Shown here: positions 59 to 21,741 of the stretch, one piece after another
Position numbering within the stretch: the first letter of the stretch is position 1
Layout: the number at the start of each line of letters is the position of its first letter
NCBI GenBank assembly: GCA_016207285.1
Contig: JACQPW010000033.1
Span: 1-55,037 of the forward strand
Source of the DNA: Candidatus Kerfeldbacteria bacterium
GTDB taxonomy: Bacteria; Patescibacteriota; Patescibacteriia; UBA9570
Length of the DNA stretch: 55,037 bases
Direction: 5' to 3'
Position numbers and translations under genes: made by a program
The notes under the pieces: model-generated
What the model was told of the DNA's origin: nothing
The model's input: only the letters and a program-made list of their open reading frames with translations
The model's database searches: none

Positions 59-1570
59 ATGCCTAAGAAAAAAGTAATGAAAACTGATAAAGCCGTTAAA
101 GCCCCTGCTGCCGCTGCGCCGGTGAAAAAAATGCGTCGTAAATTTGAACCACCCCAGCTGTTAAAGGGGATGAAGGATATTCTACCCGAAGAGCAGTCTT
201 ACCGGATGGTCATCTTACGCAAATTGGAAGATATTGCCATTGCCTATGGTTATCAACGCGTTGATACACCTATTTTAGAGCAGGCGTCCTTGTTTCAGCG
301 CTCAATTGGTGAGATGACTGATGTCGTGCAAAAAGAGATGTACACTTTCGAAGATAAATCAGGTGACCAAGTGGCCATGCGACCTGAGTTTACCGCTTCA
401 ATTGCTCGCTCCTACATTGAGCATGGGATGATGAACCGGACTCAGCCGGTGAAACTGTATACCATTGGACCCTTATTTCGTCACGACCGTCCGCAAGCTG
501 GTCGCTATCGCCAATTTTGGCAACTCGATTTAGAGGTGATCGGTGAAGGTCAGCCGATTATTGACGCCGAACTGATTGCCATTGGCTATTTCTTATTTAG
601 AGATTTAGGCTTAGAAGCCACTGTGCATATCAATAGTATTGGTGATGAGCAATGTCGTCCGCAATATATTCAAGTCCTGCAAGAATACTTCAAGGCGCGG
701 CGTAAAAATTTATGTGAAAATTGCAAGTTGCGCTTGAATAAGAGCACCCTACGCCTATTGGATTGCAAAGAACCAGCCTGCCAAGAGATTGCTCAAGATG
801 CTCCGCAAATCGTTGATCATTTATGTGCCCCTTGTCGTGACCACTTTGTGAAAGTGTTAGAGCACTTGGATGAAACTCAGATTCCCTATACCTTAAATGC
901 CAAAATTGTGCGTGGGTTAGACTATTATACCCGCACTGCCTGGGAATTTTTCCCAGTCGCACAAGGTGAGGAGCAAATGCAGAGTCAATCAGCCTTAGCG
1001 GGCGGCGGACGTTACGATACTTTGTTGGAGATGCTGGGTGCTACCCAACCCGTACCAGCCTCTGGCTTTGCCGCTGGCATTGAACGCTTAATCTTGGCCA
1101 TGAAGAACAAGAACATCATGCTACCTAGCTTGTATGTACCCGATGTCTATTTGGCTCAACTGGGTGCTTCGGCGCAAAAACGCTCCATTAGTTTGATGGA
1201 GCAATTGCGTCAAGCTGGTTTCAAGGTGTGGGGTAACTTGGTGAAAGAAAGTTTGTCGGCGCAACTGAAAGTAGCGAACAAATTAGCGGTTCGATTTACC
1301 TTAATCCTTGGCCAGAAAGAATTATTGGATGGCACTATCATTATTCGCGATATGGATAGTGGTTCGCAGGAAATCGTCGATATCAAGAAAATTGAAAAGG
1401 AACTAGCTAAACGGATTGAAAAAGCTCCTGCTTTGTCACCGAATCGATCAGTAGGTGCGTATGATGCCTTAGCTGCTAACCTAGAAGAGCAGCCCAACTT
1501 GGCACCAGAAGTGGTCACTCCAGCAGCCGTTGAGCCATTGCAGACCGAATTACCGATTGGTGATAAGTAA
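59..1570 (+). CDS. hisS: histidine--tRNA ligase (class II aaRS)
   Basis: 503-aa ORF. HisRS-type motifs are readable in the translation (AMRPEFTASIARSY, RQFWQLDLEVIG, ALAGGGRYD), with an anticodon-binding-like C-terminal domain (FTLILGQKE...IIIRDM). It has a Lys-rich ~25-aa N-terminal extension and a Pro/Ala-rich ~60-aa C-terminal extension. An alternative start ATG at 131 is preceded by GGTGA. Confidence 0.9.
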   Translation: MPKKKVMKTDKAVKAPAAAAPVKKMRRKFEPPQLLKGMKDILPEEQSYRMVILRKLEDIAIAYGYQRVDTPILEQASLFQRSIGEMTDVVQKEMYTFEDKSGDQVAMRPEFTASIARSYIEHGMMNRTQPVKLYTIGPLFRHDRPQAGRYRQFWQLDLEVIGEGQPIIDAELIAIGYFLFRDLGLEATVHINSIGDEQCRPQYIQVLQEYFKARRKNLCENCKLRLNKSTLRLLDCKEPACQEIAQDAPQIVDHLCAPCRDHFVKVLEHLDETQIPYTLNAKIVRGLDYYTRTAWEFFPVAQGEEQMQSQSALAGGGRYDTLLEMLGATQPVPASGFAAGIERLILAMKNKNIMLPSLYVPDVYLAQLGASAQKRSISLMEQLRQAGFKVWGNLVKESLSAQLKVANKLAVRFTLILGQKELLDGTIIIRDMDSGSQEIVDIKKIEKELAKRIEKAPALSPNRSVGAYDALAANLEEQPNLAPEVVTPAAVEPLQTELPIGDK

Positions 1571-1578
1571 TCCGCCCC

Positions 1579-1917
1579 ATGGATTGTATTTTTTGCAAAA
1601 TTGCTGCGCATGATATTCCAGCCAAGGTTGTTTTAGAAACTGATCAAGTGATTGTGATCCATGATATTGCACCAAAAGCCAAGGTGCATGTGTTGGCTAT
1701 TCCCAAGCAGCATCTGGTCACTTTTACTGATTTAACTGAAGACAATAAAGCACTCTTGGCGGAGCTCGGTTTGACGATCAAGCAAGCAGTGCAGCAACTG
1801 GGTATTGCAGAATCTGGTTATAAAGTGATCATCAATAACGGTCATGATGGTGGTCAGGCCGTACCGCATTTACATGCGCATGTCTTGGGCGGCGAACGAG
1901 TCAAAGGGATTACTTAG
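1579..1917 (+). CDS. HIT-family (histidine triad) nucleotide hydrolase
   Basis: 112 aa. Histidine-triad motif HLHAHVLGG near the C-terminus and an N-terminal CIFCKI, typical of HinT-like proteins. Confidence 0.85.
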   Translation: MDCIFCKIAAHDIPAKVVLETDQVIVIHDIAPKAKVHVLAIPKQHLVTFTDLTEDNKALLAELGLTIKQAVQQLGIAESGYKVIINNGHDGGQAVPHLHAHVLGGERVKGIT

Positions 1918-1929
1918 CGTTAGAATCAT

Positions 1930-3939
1930 ATGCGTCTGGCTATCATTTCAGTCATCCTCTGTAGTCTGCCAACTCTGGCTTTTGCTCGAACTCTGTTATT
2001 AGAGAACTATCAAAATATTCTGTCGTATTCTACTCAGTATCAGTCATCTTCCCTAGTACTTGGTAGGCATGATGCCTCGGGAGATTTTACCGGTGATGGT
2101 ATCAATGATCTGGTCTACTCGGATCCAAATGACAGTGGTCAAGATAAACGCACTGGTATGGTGCGCCTCTTGCCAGGCAATACTACCATCACAGATCCGA
2201 CTAAAGCGGATACTAGCCTACTGAAGAAAGGTAGTGTGGAAAATGAGCGGCAGGGAGCCAGCCTAAATTATATTGGTGATATCAATGGCGACGGCTTTGA
2301 TGAGATTTTTTCCAGTGGCAAGGTCGGGGATGCCTATCTGTATTTTGGAGCATCAGACCCAACCAATCGCTCTGAAACAGCCCTCACCAGTTTATATGAT
2401 TTCAATTGTTGCTTTGAGGCACTTGGTCCGGCCGATATCAATGGTGACAGTCAAGATGACTTAGTGATCGTTCATAATGATTTTTGGAGAACAGAAACGG
2501 CGGTTTATATTGCCTTTGGCCCCATCGACCCGACCACCGCCTTAACCATTACTGATGTAGCTGATGTGACTATCCCCAATCTGGGCAGGGGTGGTCGTAC
2601 GTATTCTCACAGTGCAACTGGAGACATCAATGGTGATGGATATGATGATTTACTATTAGCTGATGATACCACCTACCCAGACAAAGCTGTCTATCAAATT
2701 GTGTTTGGATCAACCAGCCTGCCAACCACAGTCACAGCATTCGATGCCACGATCGCCTCAAAATATGAACTCACTGACGTGTTGACTGGAGATGTGAACG
2801 GGGATGGCTTAACGGATATACTCTGTCGGCAGGCAAGCAGCAAAGGGTTTTATCTCATATTAGGTTCAGCCGACTTAGCTGGCGAAATCGGTTTAAAAAC
2901 AGCTGCCGTCTCTACCATCCCGTATACATTGGGAGAACCCGCCGAAATTGCCGATCTCAATGCTGATGGTTTAGATGACATCGTCATCGTGAAAGATGAT
3001 TTGGTTGGCTCACATAATCAATACGGTTCAGGGTATATTGTGAATGGGCGTACCGACTGGCCAGCCAGCCTTACTGAACAAGATGCCAGAAGTCAATTTA
3101 TTGGCGGTGGTATGTATGAAGAAATTCCTGTGATATCAGCCGGTGACATTGATGGCGATCAGAAAAATGATTTGATTGTTGGTTCACCATATTATCAGGC
3201 TGGTCAGCCAGCTCGCCTGTATTTACTCACTTCTCGAGATCAGGACAGTGATCAGTTTACTGGTCTATCCGGTGATTGTGATGATACTATCTCCACCATC
3301 AATCCGGATGAACGTGATGATACGGGTGATCAAGTGAATAATGATTGTGATGGTTACACCGATGAAGCTGCGACGTTCTCACCACTCCAAAATGGGAAGA
3401 TCGTGTCAGTTGAATTGTTGCCTTATCAGCAGTTGGTTATCACCTATGCAGATGATTCTAAGCAGAGTATTTTTTTAAGTGAATATAGTAACAAATCGAA
3501 CAAGTATTATAATGCCTTCCATATCCCAGAAACAAAGTTCATCGCTGTCATGAATAATGACTATGGTGACGGTGAAGAATTGTATGTCATGAATGGCTAT
3601 TCAGGAAAAACAGTTGCTCGAGTGGTGGAGCATGTTTCGAACGCATTTCAAACTAACGGTATTCTTCATCTGGATCATACTACTGCGTATGGGCAAGAAC
3701 TGCTGATTGGTGCCAATCATTACGAAGTGGGTGCCGGAGACTATTATTTTCCTACAGAAGTATATCTTTTTTCCGTAGATACAGTTACTGGGCAGATCAT
3801 CTGGCGAGATACTGTGGCTATTGATCAGTTGTACCGTCAAGTAGAGGTCAGGGGTAAAACAATCCAGTTGCTCATTAAGGGAAATACCGTAGCGCAGTTC
3901 AAGATTACCGCAGATCTCACATTAGAACAAACCGAGTAA
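1930..3939 (+). CDS. secreted FG-GAP/VCBS-repeat protein with MopE-like Cys/Asp motif and unknown C-terminal domain
   Basis: 669 aa with a signal-peptide-like N-terminus (MRLAIISVILCSLPTLAFA). Repeated Ca-binding-type loops: GDFTGDGINDL, GDINGDGFDE, ADINGDSQDDL, GDINGDGYDDL, GDVNGDGLTDI, ADLNADGLDDI, GDIDGDQKNDL. Motif DCDDTISTINPDE...NNDCDGYTDE lies at nt 3274-3366. Confidence 0.75.
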   Translation: MRLAIISVILCSLPTLAFARTLLLENYQNILSYSTQYQSSSLVLGRHDASGDFTGDGINDLVYSDPNDSGQDKRTGMVRLLPGNTTITDPTKADTSLLKKGSVENERQGASLNYIGDINGDGFDEIFSSGKVGDAYLYFGASDPTNRSETALTSLYDFNCCFEALGPADINGDSQDDLVIVHNDFWRTETAVYIAFGPIDPTTALTITDVADVTIPNLGRGGRTYSHSATGDINGDGYDDLLLADDTTYPDKAVYQIVFGSTSLPTTVTAFDATIASKYELTDVLTGDVNGDGLTDILCRQASSKGFYLILGSADLAGEIGLKTAAVSTIPYTLGEPAEIADLNADGLDDIVIVKDDLVGSHNQYGSGYIVNGRTDWPASLTEQDARSQFIGGGMYEEIPVISAGDIDGDQKNDLIVGSPYYQAGQPARLYLLTSRDQDSDQFTGLSGDCDDTISTINPDERDDTGDQVNNDCDGYTDEAATFSPLQNGKIVSVELLPYQQLVITYADDSKQSIFLSEYSNKSNKYYNAFHIPETKFIAVMNNDYGDGEELYVMNGYSGKTVARVVEHVSNAFQTNGILHLDHTTAYGQELLIGANHYEVGAGDYYFPTEVYLFSVDTVTGQIIWRDTVAIDQLYRQVEVRGKTIQLLIKGNTVAQFKITADLTLEQTE

Positions 3940-4006: not shown

Positions 4007-4036
4007 TTGACAACCTTGGGAAAGAAGTGGTATAGT
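4007..4036 (+). promoter_or_regulatory. sigma70-like promoter for the rpsU operon
   Basis: TTGACA (4007-4012), an 18-nt spacer ending in TGG, then TATAGT (4031-4036), giving an extended -10 TGGTATAGT. A strong SD, GAGGAGGTGA, lies at 4070-4079. Confidence 0.55.
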
Positions 4037-4085: not shown

Positions 4086-4343
4086 GTGCCAGCTATTAGA
4101 GTGCAACGCAACGAAAACGAATCAAACGAAAGCCTAACGCGCCGTTTTGTTCGCAAAGTCCAAGCTAGCGGTAATTTAACCCTAGTGAAAAAGAAACAGC
4201 ATCGTGAACGTCCGGTCAGCAAACGATTGCAGCGTCGCAGCGCCATTCTCCGTTCCAAATCTCGTGATAAACGGGAACACTTACGGAAAATCGGTAAGCT
4301 CGATGAGATCCAAGATCGTTCTAAGCGGAAATTTCGTCGGTAA
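4086..4343 (+). CDS. rpsU: 30S ribosomal protein S21
   Basis: 85 aa, very basic, GTG start 6 nt after GAGGAGGTGA. The translation PAIRVQRNENESNESLTRRFVRKVQASG...KRLQRRSA resembles S21. Confidence 0.85.
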   Translation: MPAIRVQRNENESNESLTRRFVRKVQASGNLTLVKKKQHRERPVSKRLQRRSAILRSKSRDKREHLRKIGKLDEIQDRSKRKFRR

Positions 4344-4371
4344 AAATAAAGCTAAAAACCAAATATTGCGC

Positions 4372-4815
4372 ATGAGCGTTTTTGCCACCATCCAAACAGA
4401 CATGATTTCCGCCATGAAAAGCAAGGTAGAAATTGAGGTCTCCACGTTGCGTGGTTTAAAAGCGGCTATCCAAAAAGATGCGATCGACAGCAAGGGCTCG
4501 CCAGATGATGATCAGCGAGCTTTTGTTGTGTTGAAACAAGAGGCTAAAAAGCGGCAGGATTCTGTCCAAGCTTATCGGGCGGCTGGTCGGAATGATTTAG
4601 CCGATCAAGAGCAAGCGGAGTGGGAGTTGATTAAGCACTATTTGCCGGCACAGTTATCGGAAGCCGAAGTGAAGATCGTGGTGGATCAAGTGGTGCAGGC
4701 CAATGGGGACAATAAAAATTTTGGTTTGTTAATGAAACAGGTCATGCAACAGTTGGATGGTCAAGCCGATGGAAAGGTCGTATCCACTCTTTTGAAACAA
4801 GCACTGACTGTATGA
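4372..4815 (+). CDS. yqeY: GatB/YqeY-domain protein
   Basis: ATG at 4372 (Met57 of the listed 4204 ORF) gives ~147 aa. Typical YqeY pattern: IQTDMISAMKSK...LRGLKAAIQKD...QEAKKRQDSVQAYRAAGRNDLADQEQAEWELIKHYLP...FGLLMKQVMQQLDGQADGKVVSTLLKQ. Its position after rpsU matches the conserved rpsU-yqeY pairing. Confidence 0.8.
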   Translation: MSVFATIQTDMISAMKSKVEIEVSTLRGLKAAIQKDAIDSKGSPDDDQRAFVVLKQEAKKRQDSVQAYRAAGRNDLADQEQAEWELIKHYLPAQLSEAEVKIVVDQVVQANGDNKNFGLLMKQVMQQLDGQADGKVVSTLLKQALTV

Positions 4816-7800
4816 ACCGGTATAAACGTGCCTTGCAACTGTTCCTCGTCTCTGCCAGTGGTTGGGTTTTAACTACCCAGGCTGCCTGGGCGCAAGTCAA
4901 TACCAGTTTTGATTTTGTGTTAGGTGATACCTCGCCAATTGATATCATCATTGCGATCATTAATTGGACGTTAGGTATCTTAGCTCTGATCGCTGTAGTC
5001 ATCATTCTCTATGGGGGCTTTGTCTGGATGACCGCTCAAGGTGATGAGGAGAAGCTCACTAAAGCTAAAGCTATTTTACGTAATGCCTTGATCGGTTTGG
5101 TCATTATTTTGGCCTCATGGGGGATCGCCCGCTACATTATCAACTTGTTCCTTGATCTGACTGGGGCAACCAATGATGAATACTCGACACCGTATGAACC
5201 ATACGAATCATCCAGTGGTTCGCCGTTTTACGTTGATCATTCTAATCCAGCTGATGGCGACGAAGACGTTACGTTGTGTCATATTATTGCCGTTACTTTT
5301 TCTTACCCACTCAACGAATCATCCGTCGATTCCAGCAGCTTCACGGTCACGATTCCAGAAGATTCCGTCACTAACCCGGGTGGTGGGTTGGGCAATAGTG
5401 TGAGTTGTACCTCTGATAACCAGTGTTTGTCGGGTGTCTGCAGCGATGCGGGATCCTGTGATGGTGACGCTGTAGCTGGTTCATTTGCCTTTTCCGAAAG
5501 CAGCTATGCAGCGGTGTTTTATCCCAGTACGGATTACTTATCAGACACCACCTACCGGGTAGAATTAAGCACTGCCGTTGAAGGGATTAGCCCAGACACC
5601 GGTGCTGTTTATAATTTGACCTCTGGTGACGCCAAACGTATTTTTACCTTTACCACTGGTAATACCACTGATGATATTCCCCCCAAGGTAGACGTGACAG
5701 ACGTGACACCCTCCCCTGATGACGATGAAGCCGACATCTGTTTAAATCCAACGTTCCAAGTATCGTTTTCAGAGAGTTTGGATCCCGCCTCTCCAGCAGA
5801 CACCAATGTCTGGCTGTATGCGGCTGCCTCGACACCAACCGATAGTCTAGATTTAGGCACCATTCGTTTAACCAGTATTGGCGGTGAGGCTGATGATACG
5901 ATTGCGACCTCACCAGAATTAGAGCTGTCCAGTTACACCGACTATGGGTTAAGCCTGTATAGTGGTGACAGCACCACTGACACCTTTGAAGGGGCTATTT
6001 ATGATACCTGCGGCAATCCATTGAGTGGTGATTTTGATGATGATATGGAAGGTAGCCCGACGGATGATTTTGTCGATCCGGCTTCCAGTGGGTTAGATCA
6101 AGCCTTTTGTAGCTGCACAACGGGCACTGATAGTTGTAATGTCGATATCGGTAGTAGTAGTTGCGACGTAGATGCTGACACCACTTGTACATTAGACGCT
6201 ACCTGCAGTGATACCAGTGACGATTATGTTGGCTTCACATATCAATGGAACTTTACCACTGGTGACGAACCGTACTGTCTGCCTAATGTCGAAGATATTA
6301 CCCAGGAAGATTATTACTATAGTGAAGATGAAGACCCCACCGGAGATACCGGTAGTGAAGATACTGGGATCGTTTTGATTGAGGGGGAGTATCTGTATCC
6401 GTTCTATGATGTCGACTTTAATAACAATATGTCGGCAGCTGGGATGAACTGTTTTGATACCGATTTTACTTCCAGCATGTCCTGTTTTGTGGATAATATT
6501 GGCAGCACTGCCATCACTGTCCGTACCCCGGTAGCCAGCCAGACCGGACGCATTAGTGTTGAAAATGCTGATGGTGCCGATACGTCTGCCGACACAGCCA
6601 TCATCTTGTCGCCCTATGTGCGTAACACTTCCCCGTTAAGTGGGCCGCCCGGGCAGTATGTTACCATTCGCGGTTCCAACTTTATTGATTATGATCCAGA
6701 TGATACGACCAGTGAGCGTGGCCATGTTTATTTTGATGGAGTAGAGGTGGAAGTGATGTGTGATGATGGTTGGGATGATGATCAAATTATCGTCCGAGTG
6801 CCGGATGAGTATGTGGATGGTGACACGCCATTAATTCAGGTGTTGACCGTTGGGCCAGATGAGTCGGCTGATACCAGCGATGATAAATATAGTAACCATG
6901 AAGGGTTCACCGTCACCTCTGGCAACCCTGGGCCAGGGATTTGTGAGCTTGATCCTAGTTGTAGCGATAGTGGTTTAGATGATGTAGCGGTGATTGGTGA
7001 AAACTTTGGCACCTCTGGCACAGCCTATTTAGATCCGCCCGATGCTGACTATGAAGCTTGGCCAGCCTCGCAGTGGGATGTGTATAATTCTACCTATGAT
7101 AGTCAATCGGTTGTCACTGATGGTGCCAGCAGTCCATTCACAGCACCCAATGACTATACGTTGACCTTAGGTAACTCGGAAGGAATCAGTAATGGTCTAG
7201 ATTTTGATATTACCTGTCACGATTCTCCCCAGGTCTTTCAGTACTACCAGTGCGATTTAGAGCAAGATACCTACTATTTACCGAACCCAACTGGTTACAC
7301 GGATAATGCCTGCGTCAACAGCGTCATCTACTTTGGGTTTACCAATGACATGGATGATGCCACGGTCGAAGCCAATGCCACCATCTATCAATGTAATAGT
7401 ACGGCTACACCGTATGACGCCACTACCTGTACTACTTCCGTTGCTGGAACCTATGTGACCGATTACTTGAATGCCGCTTATCTTGGTGGTGACAGTAGTG
7501 ACACCTTAGATGGTACCGATGACATAGATGGTGACGGTGACATTAATGAATACGATGCCTATAGTGGCTACACCTTTTATCCAGACGGGGGTTTGGATGC
7601 TGCCTACTACTATTTGGTGACACTACCAGTAACCATTACCAATAAGGCCGGTGTCCCACTAGGGAGTGAATACAGCTGGTATTTTGCCGTCCGGGATGAT
7701 ACCGCTAATTGTGTGGCTGATTATTTAGCCTTGAATCCGGCTGCGCAACGGGTCAATAGTTATGATAGTTTTGATGCTTGTTTGGATCAGTATGAGTATA

Positions 7801-10800
7801 ACGATACTAGCTATTCGTTACGAGCTCGTCCAGCTACCTCTGATTGTTTGATCTTAAACGATGCCGGTGATTACGACTGGAGTGTGACGCAGCCAGTTGG
7901 TGCGGACATTTTAAGTTTTGGTGTGAACGATGCTACTACTACGGATATTGCTTATGGTACTACAACCACTACCACGACCAATGGTTATAATACCGTTTGT
8001 TTAGAAGGTGACGATGAGACCAATGATGGCTTAGCGACTGTATCAGCCGAGCTACTAGATTCTAGTGACGGTTCTGTGGCGGCTAGTGATGATGCTACCA
8101 TCGAAGTCGACTTTGGTTTCTGTACCCAAGATAGTGATTGTTACACCGAAGATTGTCGTGATACCTATTGTGATGCTACTACTTCGCATTGTGCTCCCGA
8201 TATTATTGCCTTTACCCCTAACAATAGCACTGGTTCTGACGTTGGCCCCAGTGGTTGTGTCACCTTGTCTGGTTGTTATTTTGGTAACGATCAAGATCAA
8301 GAAGGTTCGTGTACGTGTACGCAACTGGAAGTGAATGATTCCGATACGAGCGATAATGAAACCTGTAGTGTGGATGAAGGGGGCTATAATTGTTTGTTGC
8401 AAGATGGCATCCAAACCTGTAGTTTAGATGCCGATTATTGTGCGTTAGGTGAGACTTGTTCCACTGAATCTACCAGCGCCAATTATGATCTCGGTTTCTT
8501 CCGTGGTTGTGATTGTACGATGACCGATGGAACGGATCGCACCTGTCGCGTTGAAGAAGGCTATACCGAGTGTGTCGCTCAAGGTGATACAGAAACGTGT
8601 GATAGCACTGATAGTAGCTTTGTCGATGGTGGTACGGGTAGTGTTAGCTTTACGGATGCAGCTGCCACTGATTATCCGGCTTCTTTCCCATCGGAAGTGA
8701 TTTGTGAAGATATTTGGGATAACGATCAAGTGATCGCGCAGGTACCGGGCTCGGTGGCTGCGGGTGATTATAGTTTAACCTTAAACAGTTACTATAGTTT
8801 GACTGATATCTACGGTAGCGCCGGTGATGATGCTACAGAGTCAGATTGTACGGTGGGCAGTAACGCTACTCCTTGTTTGTGCCGCGCTGACCCAGATACG
8901 GGACGAGAAAGCACCACTACCGATTTATATGGTGAGGGTTTTGATCTTTTGACTACTGACGGTAATCAGGAGGTGACTTTTTCCCCTTCCACTAGCCGGT
9001 TACCGGCTGATGGTTCAGAAATCTGGACGAGTGCCAATTTCATTGATGAAGTCGTGGTACCAGAAGGGGCGGTGTCAGATGACGAAGGCGTGCAGTTGGA
9101 AAATGATACTTTAGCTTTAACCAGTAATGCTTTATCATTTTCAGTCAGTTGTGGCTCTAACTTAGATTGTGCCACTGGGTGTTGCAGTGCTGGTCAGTGC
9201 GCCACCGCTGAAACTTGTAATGCCTGCGAAAATAGTACAGATTGCACCTATGGAAGCTGCCTATCCGAATGCGCCGATGGCATGTGTGAACCCTACATTA
9301 TTGATGTTAGCCCAGAAGCTGGTGCAGTGGGTCAGCCAGTGACTATTCAAGGTTGTCATTTTGGAACGTACTATAATCCGTCCACCTATACAACAGGTAG
9401 TAAAGTGACTGTGGACGGTATTACCGCCGAATTAGCCTGTAGCGAAGTAGATTCTTGGAATAACCTGCAGATTATTGCCACGATGCCGGATGATATTTTT
9501 GTTGATACCTCTGACACCACGGCCGATGTTGTCGTTACTCAAGTGTATACCAGTGGTGGTGCCCAGGTAGCCCAAACCAGCAACACGGCCGTCTTTAGCC
9601 AGGATGAGAGTTGTTCGGAAGTTGATCTACCAGTATTGTGCGATGCTACCCCAGGCTATAGTCCGTTGACGACCAGTTATGATGTGACCCTAGAAGGGGA
9701 GCAGTTTGCGGATGAAGATAGCGGTTACTGCACCTGTAACACCACTTCCTTAGGTGATTGTGAGATTGCAGAGGGTTCCGCCTCTTGCACGGTTTCTGCT
9801 ACCACCACCTATTATGTCAATCCAGATTTCACCTCTGAAACCTGTGCTACGACCACCTCTAATGCCTATAGTGTCTATGATGGTACGCTTGGGTATTGTG
9901 TGTATACCGATCCTGATGGTGCCACCACAGTGTATTTAGATCCAGAGGATCCTACAGAAGTCTGTGCGACCACGACCACATCAGCTGATACCAATGGTTA
10001 TTCGACCTATTCAGCGACCGATGGGTACTGTACGTACACTGATCCTACAGATGCAACACAGACCTGTGTGATAGCCGTAGGCAACGCTAGTTGTAGTGTA
10101 TGTACCATACCGGTTGACAGCAGCACCTGCTCATTAACGGCTAGCGAGACCTGTTATGTGGATGAAGACGCTACATCAACCACCTGTTCTTCCTCTGTGA
10201 GTAACTTCACCAATTTAGATGGTTCGGCTGAATATTTCAATGATGTGACAGCCAGTGTGGACTGGACTCAATATTACGACACTCAATATATTACCGATGT
10301 GCCCGATGGTTCTGAAACCGGTGATGTACTGGTTATTGCCACTACCGATGCTGGCACCCAATGCAGCAGTAATGGTCTGGAATTCCCAGTCACGTGTGAT
10401 AGTTGCAGTGAGTGTGGTAGCACGCGGGATAACTTATTGAACTGTAATTTGGATTACGATCCCAGTTTTGGTAGTTGCACGGCGGACACCGCTGGGTTCT
10501 GTCGGGATGAACCAGATTCCTGTTGTAATCTATCTAGTTGTGCGTATGATGATAGTGATGGTACAGATACCGGCACCTGTGCCGCTCAACCGATTATTCA
10601 GTTTGACGATGAAGATGCCGATGCCTTGAGTGACTACATCGAAAGTGACTACAGTATGGATGCCGGGTTACAAGATACGGATGATGATGACACGATTGAT
10701 TCTGACGAAGTCGGCGTAGATAATGGTAATTATGCCCTGGATGTGATTGATTCAGCGACCTTCCCCACACCTGGTCAAAATCCTGTCTGTTCTAATGCAC

Positions 10801-13229
10801 AAATTAGTATCCAATTTAGTCAGCCGATTACCACGAGTGCTGTCTTTGACTTCAACGATAACGATACTGTATTGGACGAGAATGGAGACGATATTACTGA
10901 CTTTACCGATGACGTGGCTCCTGAAGATATTGAATTTACCGATTATATCCGGTTGCATTACTCAAGTTTTGCTGACACGAGTACGGTCACAAATATTAGC
11001 GACATAGTTTTATCCAATGATGGTACTACGTTAACGTTCGAGCTGAGTCGTGTACTCCGTCATGGCGTAGAGTTTGAGATTATTATCGAAACGGATGATT
11101 ATCGCTCCGGGATTATCGATGCCGAAACTGGGGTGCCGCTAGGCTGTACTACGGAAATGGAGGATGATGGGTTGTGTTACGATGGTTACCTACGATATAC
11201 CTTTACGACCACTTCCTTGACGCAGTACAGTGATTCCTGTTCACCAGCGTATGTGGTGCTGGAAGCGGACAGTGAGGATTTTCAAGATGCCAATTATACC
11301 TTTAGTGAGTCTGAACAGGAAGAAAGCTTTACTGCCACTGTGTATGCAGCCGGCGAGGATCTCTATCCAGATAATGGTACAACAGATGCAGACGCTGATG
11401 GGGTTGATGATGGCGACGATGATCAGCCGATCACCCGGATTGATGATGGGGCGGACGCTGGGTTTGATTGGACGTATGCGTGGGATCCGATCTATGACAC
11501 CATCGAAGATTTAGAAGCCGCTTCTTGCCCGGTAGCTGGTATTATTACGGATGAGGAAGTCGGTAGCTGTAGCTGTGATGTGGAGGAAAGCTGTGATATT
11601 ACCGCTGGTGATGAAACTTGTACGACCAGCAGTGGTGTCAGTTGTTACACCGATTCACCCAATGCCGAATGTGATGCCTTTGATTCTGGCTATGATCCTA
11701 CCGATAACAATTGTGTCTGTACCGTATCCGATAGTTGCACCATCGAAGCAGCCGAAGCTAGTTGTACGGTGGATATTAATGACACTACGGTTACGTGTAC
11801 AACCGATTCTACCGCTACCACACCAGTCTGTGATACTTCCGATACTGGTTGGTCTGATGGCAGTTTTGTGGAAGATACCGATACGCAAACCTTGACCGCC
11901 GATACACCAGATAGTAATGGTAGTAATACCGATACCATTGAGGTGAGGGTAACGGGAGATGGCTCGGTGGAACAAGGTTGGGGTAGCTCTGTACCTGCCG
12001 CCGAAGGGGATGATCTAACGGATAGCATCTTATTTGATCTCTACTATTGTGATGCCAACTACTTGGTCAGTTATTCGAATGCGGACTATAATTTTTACTG
12101 GCGCTATTGTCGTGGTACCGACCCGCAAGATGAAGACTTCTTGCCTGATTTTTCTACGCCGGTGTTTGAACGCAGCGATACAGACATTGATACCGCCTAT
12201 GGTAGCGATCAAGAATTTATTTACGAAGTTGCCTTTAAAGATGCGACAGCCGGGAGCAACGATCCTACCACTAATAATAACTTGGTGGCAGTGCGGGTAT
12301 ACCCCAATGACTTTGATGGTGATTTAACCACCCCAGGGGATAGTGTGAATCCAGATCTGTGGTACTTATTGAATACCAATAATGCGGATGCTTCCTCTAG
12401 CGCCACGACCATTGATGGTTATGATGCGGTCGAGGTGGGTAACACTACCTATGTAGCGGCCACCAACTTAGACGATGGTACTGGTATTGTTTCACCGTAT
12501 ATTTATGTGATTGCCTACAGCAGCGATGCCGATGAGGAGACGACAGCAGTCGTAGCAGCTTTACTAGAAGGCTTTAAGTTCAACCGTAATGATGAACTAT
12601 CCGCTAGTTGTGCTATTGAGAAAGTTGCGCTCATTGCGGATGCCGACCGAGTAACGGATCTAGGAACCATTGCCTATGTATTAAGCAGTTATTATTACAA
12701 TGATACGGATTTGAATGGTACAGATGATTTCCCAGCCCTGGCCAGTGGGTCGTATATTTCTGGATTTACTACCTCTATCTGGCCGTCGTGGAACGATACC
12801 TTTGGTACGCTATTGGGGCAGACCTTAGATACCGATCCTGTGAATGCCTTTGCTGATGCCGAAACCAGTTGCCCGTATGATCCACCAGATTTGTCCGCCG
12901 GCGAAACGACCGGTACGTATTATGATGAAACGGGCACCTGTTGGGATCCAGTGCTAGAAGATTTCTATGGTCCAGCCGATTCAGAGCTCTATCTCTATCA
13001 ATACCATGATGCCGACGATTTTGCGCTCTATACTAACTTAGAATATGATGGCACCGGTAGTTGGATTGAGGCCAAATATGATCCTTGCACCTCCTATTAC
13101 GATGATGGTACAACGGCGACGACGGCTGACGCTATTAGCGCTTACTCTGATAGTGGTTGCGGTACGTTCGATTATATAGTGGAGGATAGCGAAACGACTG
13201 ATAATACCACCTATGACGACCTCTTCTAG
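4812..13229 (+). CDS. giant (2805 aa) membrane-anchored, highly acidic, Cys-rich surface protein with Ig-like (SbsA/Big_5-like) and IPT/TIG-like modules
   Basis: Uninterrupted 8.4-kb ORF whose ATG overlaps the yqeY stop (ATGA). The N-terminus has a signal-like segment plus two TM helices flanking GGFVWMTAQGDEEKLTKAKAIL. IPT/TIG-like segments follow (e.g. SGPPGQYVTIRGSNF...VYFDGVEVEV; SPEAGAVGQPVTIQGCHFG). There are many CxC-containing Cys modules, and the composition is D/E/T/S-rich and K/R-poor. Confidence 0.85.
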   Translation: MNRYKRALQLFLVSASGWVLTTQAAWAQVNTSFDFVLGDTSPIDIIIAIINWTLGILALIAVVIILYGGFVWMTAQGDEEKLTKAKAILRNALIGLVIILASWGIARYIINLFLDLTGATNDEYSTPYEPYESSSGSPFYVDHSNPADGDEDVTLCHIIAVTFSYPLNESSVDSSSFTVTIPEDSVTNPGGGLGNSVSCTSDNQCLSGVCSDAGSCDGDAVAGSFAFSESSYAAVFYPSTDYLSDTTYRVELSTAVEGISPDTGAVYNLTSGDAKRIFTFTTGNTTDDIPPKVDVTDVTPSPDDDEADICLNPTFQVSFSESLDPASPADTNVWLYAAASTPTDSLDLGTIRLTSIGGEADDTIATSPELELSSYTDYGLSLYSGDSTTDTFEGAIYDTCGNPLSGDFDDDMEGSPTDDFVDPASSGLDQAFCSCTTGTDSCNVDIGSSSCDVDADTTCTLDATCSDTSDDYVGFTYQWNFTTGDEPYCLPNVEDITQEDYYYSEDEDPTGDTGSEDTGIVLIEGEYLYPFYDVDFNNNMSAAGMNCFDTDFTSSMSCFVDNIGSTAITVRTPVASQTGRISVENADGADTSADTAIILSPYVRNTSPLSGPPGQYVTIRGSNFIDYDPDDTTSERGHVYFDGVEVEVMCDDGWDDDQIIVRVPDEYVDGDTPLIQVLTVGPDESADTSDDKYSNHEGFTVTSGNPGPGICELDPSCSDSGLDDVAVIGENFGTSGTAYLDPPDADYEAWPASQWDVYNSTYDSQSVVTDGASSPFTAPNDYTLTLGNSEGISNGLDFDITCHDSPQVFQYYQCDLEQDTYYLPNPTGYTDNACVNSVIYFGFTNDMDDATVEANATIYQCNSTATPYDATTCTTSVAGTYVTDYLNAAYLGGDSSDTLDGTDDIDGDGDINEYDAYSGYTFYPDGGLDAAYYYLVTLPVTITNKAGVPLGSEYSWYFAVRDDTANCVADYLALNPAAQRVNSYDSFDACLDQYEYNDTSYSLRARPATSDCLILNDAGDYDWSVTQPVGADILSFGVNDATTTDIAYGTTTTTTTNGYNTVCLEGDDETNDGLATVSAELLDSSDGSVAASDDATIEVDFGFCTQDSDCYTEDCRDTYCDATTSHCAPDIIAFTPNNSTGSDVGPSGCVTLSGCYFGNDQDQEGSCTCTQLEVNDSDTSDNETCSVDEGGYNCLLQDGIQTCSLDADYCALGETCSTESTSANYDLGFFRGCDCTMTDGTDRTCRVEEGYTECVAQGDTETCDSTDSSFVDGGTGSVSFTDAAATDYPASFPSEVICEDIWDNDQVIAQVPGSVAAGDYSLTLNSYYSLTDIYGSAGDDATESDCTVGSNATPCLCRADPDTGRESTTTDLYGEGFDLLTTDGNQEVTFSPSTSRLPADGSEIWTSANFIDEVVVPEGAVSDDEGVQLENDTLALTSNALSFSVSCGSNLDCATGCCSAGQCATAETCNACENSTDCTYGSCLSECADGMCEPYIIDVSPEAGAVGQPVTIQGCHFGTYYNPSTYTTGSKVTVDGITAELACSEVDSWNNLQIIATMPDDIFVDTSDTTADVVVTQVYTSGGAQVAQTSNTAVFSQDESCSEVDLPVLCDATPGYSPLTTSYDVTLEGEQFADEDSGYCTCNTTSLGDCEIAEGSASCTVSATTTYYVNPDFTSETCATTTSNAYSVYDGTLGYCVYTDPDGATTVYLDPEDPTEVCATTTTSADTNGYSTYSATDGYCTYTDPTDATQTCVIAVGNASCSVCTIPVDSSTCSLTASETCYVDEDATSTTCSSSVSNFTNLDGSAEYFNDVTASVDWTQYYDTQYITDVPDGSETGDVLVIATTDAGTQCSSNGLEFPVTCDSCSECGSTRDNLLNCNLDYDPSFGSCTADTAGFCRDEPDSCCNLSSCAYDDSDGTDTGTCAAQPIIQFDDEDADALSDYIESDYSMDAGLQDTDDDDTIDSDEVGVDNGNYALDVIDSATFPTPGQNPVCSNAQISIQFSQPITTSAVFDFNDNDTVLDENGDDITDFTDDVAPEDIEFTDYIRLHYSSFADTSTVTNISDIVLSNDGTTLTFELSRVLRHGVEFEIIIETDDYRSGIIDAETGVPLGCTTEMEDDGLCYDGYLRYTFTTTSLTQYSDSCSPAYVVLEADSEDFQDANYTFSESEQEESFTATVYAAGEDLYPDNGTTDADADGVDDGDDDQPITRIDDGADAGFDWTYAWDPIYDTIEDLEAASCPVAGIITDEEVGSCSCDVEESCDITAGDETCTTSSGVSCYTDSPNAECDAFDSGYDPTDNNCVCTVSDSCTIEAAEASCTVDINDTTVTCTTDSTATTPVCDTSDTGWSDGSFVEDTDTQTLTADTPDSNGSNTDTIEVRVTGDGSVEQGWGSSVPAAEGDDLTDSILFDLYYCDANYLVSYSNADYNFYWRYCRGTDPQDEDFLPDFSTPVFERSDTDIDTAYGSDQEFIYEVAFKDATAGSNDPTTNNNLVAVRVYPNDFDGDLTTPGDSVNPDLWYLLNTNNADASSSATTIDGYDAVEVGNTTYVAATNLDDGTGIVSPYIYVIAYSSDADEETTAVVAALLEGFKFNRNDELSASCAIEKVALIADADRVTDLGTIAYVLSSYYYNDTDLNGTDDFPALASGSYISGFTTSIWPSWNDTFGTLLGQTLDTDPVNAFADAETSCPYDPPDLSAGETTGTYYDETGTCWDPVLEDFYGPADSELYLYQYHDADDFALYTNLEYDGTGSWIEAKYDPCTSYYDDGTTATTADAISAYSDSGCGTFDYIVEDSETTDNTTYDDLF

Positions 13230-13827
13230 CCAAGTAGAGGATATCTTTGCTGACCAAACCGAGGTTTCGTTACCAACTGAACCAGAGCCGCCCGTCCTTG
13301 ATACAGATACTACAGATACGGCGTCCAGTGTTACCCCACTGGTCGCTCCACGGCGGTCGTATGGCCGGCTGATCTTAATCATTGCCAGCTGCTTGTTGGC
13401 TTTGCTATTATTAGGTGGTATTGGGTTTGGTGTTTGGGTCTGGTTGCAGACTCCGCCAGACGATGGAACCAACCTAAGCAATGACAATGTGAACGTGGTT
13501 GTTCCAGTGGTCAATACAAATGACAATACCAATGATCCTGTGGTGGTGACGCCAACCAACACCACGGTGGATGTCACACCTACCTTCGTAGACGTTGACC
13601 ACGATGGTTTGTCCGACGGTGAGGAGTTGATCGTCAACACCAACCCGAAGAAAAAAGATACCGATGAGGATGGTTTGTCTGATCGCGAAGAAGTCCGGGT
13701 CTATAATACTGATCCACGTAATCCAGATACGGATGGAGATGGCTATACTGATGGAGATGAAGTAACGCACTCTTACCACCCCAATAGTTCAGACCCTAAA
13801 AAACGTTTATTCGATTTACCACAATAA
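13213..13827 (+). CDS. single-pass membrane protein with thrombospondin type-3-like Ca-binding repeats
   Basis: 204 aa, overlapping the giant ORF by 17 nt. TM segment LILIIASCLLALLLLGGIGFGVWVWL, an N/V/T low-complexity linker, then DVDHDGLSDGEE, DTDEDGLSDREE and DTDGDGYTDGDE repeats. Confidence 0.65.
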   Translation: MTTSSSQVEDIFADQTEVSLPTEPEPPVLDTDTTDTASSVTPLVAPRRSYGRLILIIASCLLALLLLGGIGFGVWVWLQTPPDDGTNLSNDNVNVVVPVVNTNDNTNDPVVVTPTNTTVDVTPTFVDVDHDGLSDGEELIVNTNPKKKDTDEDGLSDREEVRVYNTDPRNPDTDGDGYTDGDEVTHSYHPNSSDPKKRLFDLPQ

Positions 13828-13838
13828 AAATAAATCCT

Positions 13839-15140
13839 ATGGATTTTCCAAGTGCACCACAACCACAAACCCCGACCACTCCTCCTATGCCACCTGCCTT
13901 CCCGACTCCAAGTCCCGCTCCGGCTCCTACCCCGGTTCCACCGCAACCAATGATGACACCGACCTTTCCAAGCGTGGCTGCTCAACCTGTACAGATTCCG
14001 GTGCAAACGCATGCGGCTGGGCCGATGGGTAGCGATGACCAAATTTATACAATGCCAGAGAAATTTATTCCGGCTAATCAGGCTCCGGTAACCACAGCCA
14101 AACGCCCGCGTAAAACCATGACCATTATCTTAATCGTGGTGATTGTGTTAGCGGTCTTATCTATCATTGGTGGTGTGGCCTTTTATGTTTGGCAAATGAT
14201 GTCGACCGAAACCGTGGTCACGGATGCAAACAATGCTGTGGTGGTGAATACGCCGGTTAATAATGCGAATACTAATAGCGCGAATACCAATTTGGATAAT
14301 GCTAATACTAACGACAATGCCAACGTTGTGAATGTCAATGACGACGATAACGGTAACGACAATGCGAATGCAAACAGCAATGCTAATGACAATGTGAATG
14401 CTGATACCAATACGAATGCGGCTAATACCAACACAGTCAATACAAATACAACCAACACAAACACCACAACAGCTGTGGTTCCGCCTCCCAGTAAGGATAC
14501 CGATCAAGATAGCTTAACCAACGAAGAAGAAAAGATCTGGGGTACCAAAGCTGATTTACCAGACACTGATAGTGACGGCTATAACGACGGTGTTGAAATT
14601 TTGGCTGGTTATGATCCTACCAGTGCTGTGAGTTCTACTCGTTTGTCGGCTAGCGCACTCGTCAGTACCTTTACGAATAGTGAATATAATTATACCTTGC
14701 TCTATCCCAAGAATTGGCTAGCTGAAGGCTTAACTGGTGGTGATGGCAGTGAAATTCTGATTACGCCTAATACGCTAGATTTAACTGGTCAGTTTATTGC
14801 CATTACCGTGGCTGGTAATCCTACCGGGTTTACGGCCGTTGATTGGTATATGGATACCGCCGATGTCACAGAAGCCGAAGTCGAGACCTTTACGACCTTT
14901 GCTGGTCAAACGGGTGCCTGGAGTACCGATCATACTACGGCTTATCTGACTGATACGGACTATGTGTATGCCATTAGTTATCGCTATGGCAATAGTGATA
15001 CCCTTTATTTTCCAGCGACGCATGAGATGATGTTGAAGAGTATGACATTTACCGAAGTAACTACCAAGAAAAAAGATTCCACCAACACTAACGAGAACAC
15101 CAACGAAGATTCCAATACGAATGCCAACGCTAACAATTGA
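13839..15140 (+). CDS. membrane protein: Pro-rich N-terminus, TM, Asn-rich linker, TSP3-like repeats, unknown C-terminal globular domain
   Basis: 433 aa. PQPQTPTTPPMPPAFPTPSPAP region, TM segment MTIILIVVIVLAVLSIIGGVAFYVW, a long NANTN-type low-complexity tract, DTDQDSLTNEEE and DTDSDGYNDGVE repeats, then a ~150-aa non-repetitive domain. Confidence 0.65.
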   Translation: MDFPSAPQPQTPTTPPMPPAFPTPSPAPAPTPVPPQPMMTPTFPSVAAQPVQIPVQTHAAGPMGSDDQIYTMPEKFIPANQAPVTTAKRPRKTMTIILIVVIVLAVLSIIGGVAFYVWQMMSTETVVTDANNAVVVNTPVNNANTNSANTNLDNANTNDNANVVNVNDDDNGNDNANANSNANDNVNADTNTNAANTNTVNTNTTNTNTTTAVVPPPSKDTDQDSLTNEEEKIWGTKADLPDTDSDGYNDGVEILAGYDPTSAVSSTRLSASALVSTFTNSEYNYTLLYPKNWLAEGLTGGDGSEILITPNTLDLTGQFIAITVAGNPTGFTAVDWYMDTADVTEAEVETFTTFAGQTGAWSTDHTTAYLTDTDYVYAISYRYGNSDTLYFPATHEMMLKSMTFTEVTTKKKDSTNTNENTNEDSNTNANANN

Positions 15141-19576: not shown

Positions 19577-21724
19577 TTACCGATAAATAACGTATTCTCG
19601 ATCTGGCCGAAGTTCTAATACCAGTTCGTTGGTGTCGGTATCATAGCTCCAGTATTCGTGATCTAGACCTAACTCTGTCACGCGGCTGGGAGCAGTGTCA
19701 TACGGTAAACGTACGATGATACTGGTGTTCGTCTTGTCATACTCTAAGGCTAACTCATCAATGTTTCCGGCAGATAAGCGATAGGTCTTGTTCACTGGCA
19801 AGTTCAGTACAAAGCGGCCACCACTGGAGGAACCTTCTTCCACCATATCGATACTAGCGTCCGTGTCCAGGCGTGTAATGGTTAGCTCATCGGTATAATG
19901 TTTGTCACGGGGGTCATTAAAGACGAGGCGACCATAATCAATGTGGGGGCAAACGTAGACATTCCAAATGGTTTTGGTGACGCAGCCAGCGGTATAATGA
20001 AAATCAAGTAATGGCAATGTGACTGCTCCCGTTTTGCTATTGTTGAGCACAGCAAACATATCGCCAGCGTGGGTGACATCATCGATAAAAAACTCCTGGG
20101 CGTGTGTAAACGTTAGGTCAGCAAAGCTGTTATTGGGTGACATGGCGTAGGGATTGGTGGGTAAAATACTCACCGCGGCTTGGGTTTGGTCACCTTCCGT
20201 TTTAAAATTTTTGAACGTTGTTTGTCTGACATGTACTGGCCCGTCGTAAAAGGCGAAACCAAACTTATAGGGCATCCAACCTTCCGTTGAATCGTTACCG
20301 GATTCACCGATCACCAGTGACTTGGTCAGCGTGACGTTATTGGCAGCAAAGCTGGCACCGATGCGGTTATCCAACAGAGTAGCGTCCGTAAAGGTCAGAT
20401 CGCGCCCGCGTACCCAAATGCCGGTACTGGCGTTTTTATAAGCCGTCACACTGTCGAAGGTAGCCGGCTTCGTAGGCATATAATAGACAGAGTCAAAGCC
20501 TTCACCATCAATGGTTAACCCGCGCTCACCATTAGAATGGGTTGTATTATTGGAGAACTCTTGTAGCCGCATGGTGCGGGGTACTATGTCGCTATCTTCC
20601 GCGCTCATACCCGTGGCAGCATCTAGTAAAAAGAACCAGTAACCAAAGCCAGCCGATCCAGCCGCGCTGTTACGGCGGTAGGTATTTTGCGGGTTGGTAA
20701 TCCAAAAGGTGGCTGGTTCAGCATCAGAATCCAGGGTGGCTCCAGCGGCGGTATCGACACCAAGATTATGAATAAATTGATTATCCTCTTCTACACCATC
20801 TTCCAAAAAGTAACAGTGTCCTTTGGTGTGATAAGCTACATTATCTTGAATCAGTACATTACTAGTGGCATGGATGGTGATGCAGCGGTTACTGGAATTG
20901 GTAATGGATACTTGTTTGATGTAGGAACCAGTCCCATCACCAACCAGGTGAAAATGTAGGGGATACTGCGCCAAGGTAGCGTAGGTGCCTAGCGTGTCAA
21001 ATTGAGCTCCCACCACGGTGGCGACAGTACTGCCATTGAAAATGATGTGGCCGGCATCATACTCTTCATCACCACTAAACTGGATATTGTGTGACAGTAA
21101 ACCGACTTCAGCAAACTCATGGTGAGCACCGTAGTGTTTATAGTCTAGCTTATCTTCTAGGGTGAGTACTTTTTTGTTATTGGAGACCGCTGCAATGGTG
21201 TGCGCCTCAGCTTCCGTTGGGTCATAGCTGGTCGAAGCAATGACAATCTGATCGCCAACTTGCCAATCGACCGCTTGTTTCAGACGGAGGCGTTTACTGT
21301 CACGTGGTGCCGTAATGGCTAAGCGTGTCCAGGTACGGTCATGGTTAGCGCCATGGACAGAGAAGATACCATTGTACACTCCCAGTCGCTCGGTTTGTCC
21401 GGTGATGGCAACTTGGGTAGTCACCGAACGAGGGATAGGGTTGTCAGTTGTTCCCATTTGCCAACTACCGTAGACAGCCGCTTCATCCAGCGTCAACCGA
21501 GTATTCTGATCAGTCGAAAAATCTAGAGTGCCATTGATCGTCAACAAGTCAATCACCACATCTGATACCGCATCATAAGTAACCGTGTGATCTTCCGCAA
21601 CTTCTACTGTATCATGTTCACCGGGCACGGTAGCTGCATCCCAAGTGGCGACATCGCTCCAGTTACCTGACTGTACCGAGGTGATCGTAGCGGCTTGGAC
21701 TGCTAATGCGATAAACCATTGCAT
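19577..21724 (-). CDS. secreted G8-domain / right-handed beta-helix protein
   Basis: G8-domain hallmark at the N-terminus (SGNWSDVATWDAATVPGEHDTVEV...HTVTYD...LLTINGTLDF), followed by beta-helix-like repeats. The start is placed at Met12 (ATG 21724, MQWFIALAVQAA signal) because an extended -10 element sits 7 nt upstream. Confidence 0.75.
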   Translation of the reverse strand: MQWFIALAVQAATITSVQSGNWSDVATWDAATVPGEHDTVEVAEDHTVTYDAVSDVVIDLLTINGTLDFSTDQNTRLTLDEAAVYGSWQMGTTDNPIPRSVTTQVAITGQTERLGVYNGIFSVHGANHDRTWTRLAITAPRDSKRLRLKQAVDWQVGDQIVIASTSYDPTEAEAHTIAAVSNNKKVLTLEDKLDYKHYGAHHEFAEVGLLSHNIQFSGDEEYDAGHIIFNGSTVATVVGAQFDTLGTYATLAQYPLHFHLVGDGTGSYIKQVSITNSSNRCITIHATSNVLIQDNVAYHTKGHCYFLEDGVEEDNQFIHNLGVDTAAGATLDSDAEPATFWITNPQNTYRRNSAAGSAGFGYWFFLLDAATGMSAEDSDIVPRTMRLQEFSNNTTHSNGERGLTIDGEGFDSVYYMPTKPATFDSVTAYKNASTGIWVRGRDLTFTDATLLDNRIGASFAANNVTLTKSLVIGESGNDSTEGWMPYKFGFAFYDGPVHVRQTTFKNFKTEGDQTQAAVSILPTNPYAMSPNNSFADLTFTHAQEFFIDDVTHAGDMFAVLNNSKTGAVTLPLLDFHYTAGCVTKTIWNVYVCPHIDYGRLVFNDPRDKHYTDELTITRLDTDASIDMVEEGSSSGGRFVLNLPVNKTYRLSAGNIDELALEYDKTNTSIIVRLPYDTAPSRVTELGLDHEYWSYDTDTNELVLELRPDREYVIYR

Positions 21725-21725
21725 A

Positions 21726-21740
21726 TGGTATAGTATAGCA
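21726..21740. promoter_or_regulatory. overlapping divergent extended -10 promoter elements (candidate leaderless starts)
   Basis: + strand: TGGTATAGT (21726-21734), then 7 nt, then ATG 21742. - strand: TGCTATACT (21740-21732), then 7 nt, then ATG 21724. The two -10 hexamers overlap by 3 bp. Confidence 0.5.
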
Positions 21741-21741
21741 T

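Follow-up and report, generated by a model that had tools for sequence, protein, structure and literature searches.

A giant predicted surface protein headed by a VirB2-like pilin module in Candidatus Kerfeldbacteria and across its class

The stretch of DNA analyzed here, from the tiny uncultivated patescibacterium Candidatus Kerfeldbacteria (assembly GCA_016207285.1, contig JACQPW010000033.1, 55,037 nucleotides; hereafter the window) has as its largest gene an open reading frame (ORF) on the forward strand at 4812..13229, which encodes 2,805 amino acids and, according to the ORF list and its translation, contains no internal stop codon. The product, referred to below as the giant, appears to be an extremely acidic surface protein that is held in the membrane by a two-helix module typical of the small pilins of type IV secretion systems (T4SSs). 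It consists of a signal peptide, a hairpin of the Pfam family PF18895 and an ectodomain of approximately 2,690 residues. An initial annotation of the locus had quoted a signal-like segment, a first transmembrane segment, a loop and a second transmembrane segment at the N-terminus, and translation of 4812-5156 yields exactly these elements. The N-terminus reads MNRYKRALQLFLVSASGWVLTTQAAWA|QV, in which residues 1-27 form a predicted Sec-type signal peptide (4812..4892, +) with R3, K5 and R6 in the n-region, a hydrophobic core and an AWA|QV cleavage site; AlphaFold2 (AF2) models residues 2-27 as a helix. Based on hydropathy, the two transmembrane segments cover residues 45-73 and 93-113, with the loop TAQGDEEKLTKAKAILRNA (residues 74-92) between them.

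We searched residues 1-130 against Pfam with hmmscan and obtained a match to PF18895 (T4SS_pilin) with an E-value of 2.1e-12 and a score of 47.3 bits, which compares with a cut-off of 26.6 and is far beyond chance. The match spans residues 44-109 (4941..5138, +) and model positions 7-71 of 71, and a search of the genome returned identical coordinates. The sequence pattern that the initial annotation had ascribed to T4SS pilins agrees with the family consensus derived from 34 and from 99 sequences, which is IINWxLGxLALIAV..LYGGFxWMTxxGxEEKxxKAKxxLxNAxIGLxIIL. PF18895 matched all 99 modules taken from related loci, and 50 of the 99 also matched the TrbC/VirB2 family PF04956 (best E-value of 6.7e-9), which ties the PF18895 family transitively to VirB2 pilins. 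The giant shares with TrbC/VirB2 proteins a long signal peptide and a pair of hydrophobic helices that a basic loop connects.

The fold of the module was modeled with AF2 using the 99-sequence alignment. The model, which has a mean predicted local distance difference test (pLDDT) score of 82, contains helices at residues 2-27, 42-74 and 79-117, with values above 90 over most of a two-helix hairpin. Helix 1 (residues 42-74; 4935..5033, +) includes the Kyte-Doolittle maximum of 2.69 and is predicted to span the membrane from outside to inside; its pLDDT climbs from 57 to 96 across blocks and exceeds 90 from about residue 60. A tight turn formed by A75-Q76-G77-D78 in the modeled secondary structure (5034..5045, +) would lie on the cytoplasmic side. 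Helix 2 (residues 79-117; 5046..5162, +) has a basic amphipathic start, EEKLTKAKAILRNA, followed by a predicted inside-to-outside membrane span.

Everything that follows the hairpin, residues 118-2805 (5163..13226, +), is predicted to be extracytoplasmic based on its composition. From residue 116 onward, the protein contains 514 Asp and Glu residues but only 44 Lys and Arg residues (net charge of -470), along with 115 Cys and a Ser plus Thr content of 23%. Bacterial immunoglobulin (Ig)-like domains of the Big_5 family (PF13205) occur in two stretches, the first of which covers residues 138-282 (5223..5657, +; E-value of 3e-12), and an IPT/TIG domain (PF01833) covers residues 601-681 approximately (6612..6854, +; E-value of 3.4e-8 on a sub-fragment). 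The protein ends in a conserved domain that is poor in Cys and rich in aromatic residues (residues 2361-2805; 11892..13226, +), which AF2 models with a predicted template modeling score of 0.83. Its invariant features comprise an SxWPSW-like motif, D250 and R253 (fragment numbering), and several Cys. The domain matches no Pfam family and no Protein Data Bank (PDB) sequence, and a Foldseek search of its model against the PDB revealed no fold match (all TM-scores below 0.2 and E-values above 0.02).

The initial annotation had placed the large domain outside the cell and not in the cytoplasm, and all topology indicators, from hydropathy and charge to the AF2 model and the homologues, agree with that placement. 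A Kyte-Doolittle scan of the whole protein detected no hydrophobic segment beyond residues 40-114. Around the membrane module, Lys and Arg occur only in the n-region (three residues) and in the inter-helix loop (four residues), and the same asymmetry is present across 58 giant homologues, which average 4.0 such residues in the loop, 0.5 ahead of helix 1 and 0.4 beyond helix 2. A signal-peptidase site of the AxA-Q type ([AVST]x[AG]-Q) precedes the module in 43 of these 58. Both Big_5 and IPT/TIG are extracellular folds, and in the giant they are located C-terminal to helix 2. Furthermore, PF18895 paralogues bear M15/VanY or SLT enzymes that need access to peptidoglycan, which requires the C-terminal side of helix 2 to face outward, and the presence of a DsbA-like protein in the T4SS locus described below fits disulfide formation in Cys-rich exported domains. 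With good support from these features, we infer that the approximately 2,690 residues after the hairpin lie outside the cell.

The giant is conserved far beyond this genome. PF18895 modules were found in all 41 genomes searched, which comprise this genome and 40 relatives that range from the same genus to the same class, and in at least 24 of the 41 the matches listed include one PF18895 frame of 1,800-2,950 amino acids beside many of 120-150 amino acids. A protein search recovered 59 proteins of 1,800-4,200 amino acids that carry PF18895 together with Big_5, TIG or both, with Kerfeldbacteria, Magasanikbacteria and 'Patescibacteria group' among their named sources. We also searched for the C-terminal domain and for VirB4 in 201 genomes sampled evenly across the class (171 genera). 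The C-terminal domain is present in 161 of these genomes and in 143 of the genera, nearly always as one copy per genome and within frames of 1,500-6,000 amino acids. When 20 loci from different families were fetched, the pilin module was N-terminal in every one of them: in 19 it lies at about residues 50-150 of the longest frame (E-values of 1e-26 to 1e-35), and in the remaining locus it was located by tblastn next to yqeY. In 18 of the 20 loci, the yqeY gene is 5' of the giant gene; hisS, frequently accompanied by a HIT gene, lies farther upstream, and a gene with TSP3 repeats is 3' of the giant gene in about 8 of the 20. The hisS-(HIT)-yqeY-giant synteny is conserved across the class.

Several details of these relatives are worth recording. 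In some lineages, a second PF18895-anchored protein of approximately 800-1,000 amino acids is encoded between yqeY and the giant gene (L024:5577-7964; L067-L070). In the closest relative (L018, 90% identity), the giant frame at 1468-3885 is broken after 805 amino acids and the C-terminal domain occurs farther along the contig, which reflects a frameshift, a pseudogene or an assembly error. Several records of metagenome-assembled genomes (MAGs) with clearly patescibacterial genes (L018-L020, L023, L028 and others) are titled 'uncultured Gammaproteobacteria bacterium' and are probably mislabelled TPA assemblies.

The hairpin is also the part of the giant that has changed least. In an alignment of 24 orthologs, residues 51-100 form the most conserved 50-residue block of the protein, with 72% identity versus roughly 45% overall. 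The columns that are conserved alike in giants and in small pilins are I50, L54, L57, G69, W72, G77, A85, K86, I94, G95, L96, I98 and I105, and G77 is found in 100% of giants and 98% of small pilins. Column entropies of giant anchors and small pilins correlate with r = 0.79. Because the hairpin is the most conserved block and is constrained at the same columns as free pilins, it looks like a retained pilin module and not a mere hydrophobic anchor. In a tree of 268 modules, whose resolution is limited by their length of 84 residues, 55 of 78 giant anchors group in one clade (support of 0.74), and 77 of the 78 fall within a 119-leaf clade (supports of 0.75-0.88) that also holds 33 small pilins. 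This arrangement fits an origin of the giant anchors from one pilin subfamily.

The genome that encodes the giant (1.2 Mb in 102 contigs, about 90% complete) also carries candidate partner machinery, namely a T4SS locus with PrgI and VirB4 and an array of small pilins. Of its 13 PF18895 matches, about 10 are the small proteins of this array on contig C6, two are mid-sized proteins on contig C12, and the last is the giant. The array (C6, 13976-18628) contains small PF18895 genes on both strands, including a 311-amino-acid open frame in which two modules are joined, and is flanked by PBP1a-like, tyrS and glycosyltransferase-like membrane genes and not by T4SS genes. The T4SS locus (C12:1274-9514) encodes, in order, PrgI/VirB3-like and TraC-N-like proteins, VirB4 (641 amino acids), a small transmembrane protein, a PF18895 module fused to a Cys-rich domain (332 amino acids), another transmembrane protein, a DsbA-like protein and a PF18895 module fused to a Peptidase_M15/VanY domain (478 amino acids). 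In relatives, the last position of this locus is occupied by a fusion of PF18895 to an SLT lytic transglycosylase, and elsewhere in Patescibacteria PF18895 heads giants of the LamG, dockerin, fn3, beta-propeller and Ig types. The VirB4 gene was found in 192 of the 201 class genomes as a single copy with 65-86% identity, which is unusually high conservation for so fast-evolving a group.

Most PF18895 proteins are small, as the initial annotation had stated in giving a normal length of about 100-150 amino acids. In a survey of 213 modules that came from this genome and from 53 related loci, a set that is enriched for giants and does not give population frequencies, the length after helix 2 is bimodal with a thin middle: fewer than 15 residues follow in 135 modules, and more than 1,000 follow in 23. 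A module-profile search of 1.84 billion representatives returned 99,302 at E-values up to 1e-3, and the best 150 of those are dominated by multi-module proteins with 2-17 PF18895 modules each. Such tandem chains (P0061-P0064, P0096, P0105 and others; P0064 has 17 modules in 1,775 amino acids) represent either genuine polypilins or pilin arrays called with read-through, in which an alternative genetic code may be involved.

Taken together, these results lead us to regard the giant as a cell-surface protein with a complete N-terminal VirB2-like module of the PF18895 family, in effect a modular pilin, which probably either packs with pilins or is handled by the T4SS. In the mechanism that we propose, Sec would insert the giant into the membrane and signal peptidase would cut it after AWA27. 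Helix 1 would cross the membrane from the outside inward, the AQGD turn and the basic start of helix 2 would remain at the cytoplasmic face, and helix 2 would cross back as an internal export signal, which would produce a hairpin with both its N-terminus and its C-terminus outside. Residues 118-2805 would then be threaded to the exterior as an acidic stalk of roughly 25 domains, including the Ig-like Big_5 and TIG domains, that is stapled by disulfides and ends in the conserved globular C-terminal domain. An episymbiotic cell probably uses this stalk for contact or adhesion. The hairpin, which is under the sequence constraints of free pilins, would most likely pack with small pilins or be handled with them by the T4SS. 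Pilins of the F type and VirB2 type that reside in the membrane pool expose both termini on the outside and keep the loop inside; once assembled into a pilus, they turn the loop toward the lumen and the termini toward the exterior, and pili display short peptides that have been fused to the F-pilin C-terminus. A pilin geometry with outward termini is therefore compatible with a C-terminal graft, but only if the giant is a rare or terminal subunit.

Several observations weigh against this interpretation. A homopolymeric pilus could not tolerate a load of 2,690 residues per subunit. T4SS genes were sought beside the giant gene and none was there, and the gene lies outside both the T4SS locus and the pilin array, in a housekeeping string that runs hisS, HIT, S21-like, yqeY ... 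ybeY, dgkA, ftsA, ftsZ. A role for the giant as a member of a T4SS operon was rejected, as T4SS genes flank neither its gene nor the C6 array. At the level of family identity, the giant itself has no match to PF04956 at E-values up to 1, and its scores against the NCBIfam model NF045849, to which residues 44-111 align over 68 of 80 model positions, remain under the 40-bit cut-off (36.9 with residues 1-130 as query and 29.3 with the full-length protein). Foldseek comparison of the hairpin model with the PDB returned no hit at E-values up to 0.001 and no pilin in the top 50, although a two-helix hairpin is structurally little informative, and sequence-profile searches of the PDB with two module alignments recovered no pilin and only spurious matches to designed 'Pizza' repeats. 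The PF18895 model also scored above its cut-off in the Haloferax volcanii genome that was included as a control. This match reflects either an archaeal relative or a tendency of the model to catch other hydrophobic hairpins; MPF-FATA systems do include Archaea. Finally, the C-terminal domain is kept in seven of the nine class genomes that lack a VirB4 match, which is weak evidence given that these are MAGs. Because VirB4 and the giant are both near-universal, a co-occurrence test of dependence is nearly powerless.

The main rival explanation is that an ancestral small pilin was fused to a surface protein and that its hairpin now only inserts and holds the protein, with no contact to pilins or the T4SS. 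We consider this possible but distinctly less probable. Such a passive anchor would be consistent with the location of the giant gene away from the T4SS locus and the pilin array and in the same orientation as housekeeping genes, with the retention of the giant in seven of the nine VirB4-negative MAGs, and with the variety of unrelated ectodomains that share the module, which a general anchor would lead one to expect. However, a passive anchor predicts conservation of hydrophobicity and not of sequence, yet no block of the protein is more conserved than the hairpin, and the turn and loop residues G77, K81, K84, A85 and K86 are conserved exactly as in free pilins. The same evidence bears on the suggestion in the initial annotation that the pilin-like fold works as a generic membrane anchor or export module: the reuse of the module on M15/VanY, Cys-rich, SLT and other ectodomains agrees with that idea, but the word generic understates the pilin-like conservation of the hairpin.

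A broader alternative, which we find rather unlikely, is that the patescibacterial T4SS is not primarily a translocator of DNA or effectors but a machine for the surface display of clients that carry a PF18895 hairpin. These clients would comprise the small pilins, the M15 and SLT hydrolases that would supply VirB1 function, and the giant, which the machine would pull out of the membrane and place at the base or tip of the pilus to act as the host-contact adhesin. To our knowledge, patescibacterial T4SSs lack a relaxase and a coupling protein.

It is much less probable that the hairpin is a removable export leader, in which case it would be a long pro-region and the ectodomain would be cleaved near L-x-x-[AD]-T-G and either released or assembled into an S-layer-like coat. 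Giants do have a conserved [AD]-T-[GN] motif directly after helix 2, and the extreme acidity of the ectodomain, together with the Ca-binding TSP3 membrane proteins encoded next to it, could tether a released coat. Small pilins end at the same motif, however, which indicates that the motif belongs to the module and is not a cleavage site, and no protease or sortase-type gene is conserved beside the giant gene. An error of assembly, frameshift or gene calling that fused a small pilin gene with the ORF downstream of it is excluded as the origin of the giant by the same uninterrupted architecture in dozens of independent assemblies across the class, even though public calls at the locus can be wrong (P0003, P0004 and P0008 have yqeY merged with the giant) and relative L018 has an in-frame stop at 805 amino acids.

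The modular pilin that we propose departs from the current description of patescibacterial pilins. The T4SSs of Patescibacteria are reported to use small VirB2-like pilins, which are often encoded in arrays of 2-11 genes, while VirB1 is mostly missing, and few other systems besides the T4SS with its VirB2-like pilin arrays have been shown to be essential to the epibiotic life of this group (Wang et al., 2023, PMC10633639; Quinonero-Coronel et al., 2025, PMC12102498; T4SS review, PMC12857230). Fusions of a pilin to a giant or enzyme-bearing domain receive no mention in these three sources, and none was found in further full-text literature searches; as far as we found, the architecture can be retrieved from precomputed domain tables yet is apparently undescribed in the literature. 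Like the small PF18895 pilins, the giant has a signal peptide, the two-helix hairpin and the YGGFxWMTxxGxEEKxxKAK...IGL motif with the same conserved columns. In contrast to these pilins, which are 120-150 amino acids long and stop no more than about 15 residues after helix 2, the giant continues for 2,687 residues past the module. Its gene also differs from theirs in that it is single-copy, adjoins neither virB4 nor a tandem array, and has the class-wide hisS-yqeY synteny. Unlike VirB2 and TrbC, a protein with a giant C-terminal domain could undergo neither head-to-tail cyclisation nor C-terminal trimming, and the organism is monoderm.

Comparison with other surface systems points to functional parallels. 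The Streptococcus sanguinis proteins PilB and PilC are modular type IV pilins in which an adhesive module is grafted onto the pilin C-terminus (PMC8179133, PMC9934059). The giant resembles them in having an N-terminal pilin module and a C-terminal functional graft in a monoderm cell, where a filament system would display it, but this resemblance is functional only, since the pilin belongs to another superfamily and the graft is roughly ten times larger. Its N-terminus has no class III signal peptide or prepilin-peptidase motif (G|F/M-T-L-x-E) and contains two helices instead of one. A long acidic Ig-like stalk with a distinct distal domain is likewise found in giant Ig-repeat adhesins, such as the RTX adhesins of type I secretion systems (LapA/SiiE-type) and the LPXTG proteins. 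Whereas an N-terminal retention module holds RTX adhesins in a pore of the outer membrane and sortase attaches LPXTG proteins at their C-terminus, the giant would be held by its N-terminal pilin hairpin in the cytoplasmic membrane, and neither Pfam nor NCBIfam detected RTX or LPXTG features in it. The Mbov_0395 family (NF045849) of pilin-like conjugal transfer proteins from integrative and conjugative elements of Mycoplasma comprises small proteins, and the giant aligns to it below the cut-off, as described above; NCBI nevertheless names one giant homologue of 2,283 amino acids (P0033) an Mbov_0395-type pilin-like conjugal transfer protein. The Pam pili of the candidate phyla radiation ('Novel Pilus System in CPR' preprint, PMC13278184) were considered and set aside, as they are assembled by donor-strand exchange and represent an unrelated system.

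These findings are significant because the literature treats pilins as small stand-alone subunits, whereas here a pilin module forms the N-terminus of a giant surface protein that is near-universal and single-copy in a whole class, and in which a 1.2-Mb genome probably makes its largest investment. The same module heads cell-wall hydrolases inside the T4SS locus, and these hairpin-anchored M15 and SLT enzymes may be the VirB1 that seems to be missing from patescibacterial T4SSs. The concept of modular VirB2-like pilins thereby becomes a concrete hypothesis, which comes with a candidate host-contact protein. The result also bears on annotation: giants are currently called 'hypothetical', 'Ig-like domain-containing' or, misleadingly, 'pilin'.

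The neighborhood of the giant gene contains additional features. Upstream, yqeY (4204..4815, +; Pfam YqeY, E-value of 1e-37) overlaps it directly, as the junction reads ATGA at 4812-4815, with the TGA stop of yqeY sharing bases with the ATG of the giant. The sole strong promoter-like site, TTGACA-18-TATAGT with a TG element (4007..4036, +), lies 5' of the gene string S21-like/yqeY/giant; it matches the consensus at 11 of 12 positions in a scan and is a pattern match only. Downstream, two membrane proteins of 204 and 433 amino acids with acidic repeats of the TSP3 type are encoded at 13213..15140 (+; Pfam TSP3_bac, E-value of 1.8e-19), and the first of these genes begins before the giant ORF has ended. 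Surface proteins are abundant in the window: two large proteins with FG-GAP repeats are encoded at 1930-3939 (669 amino acids) and 51613-53400 (595 amino acids), and further big predicted surface proteins are encoded at 19577-21757, which has a G8/CEMIP beta-helix, at 21742-24417, and at 25457-27652, which is BNR/sortilin-like.

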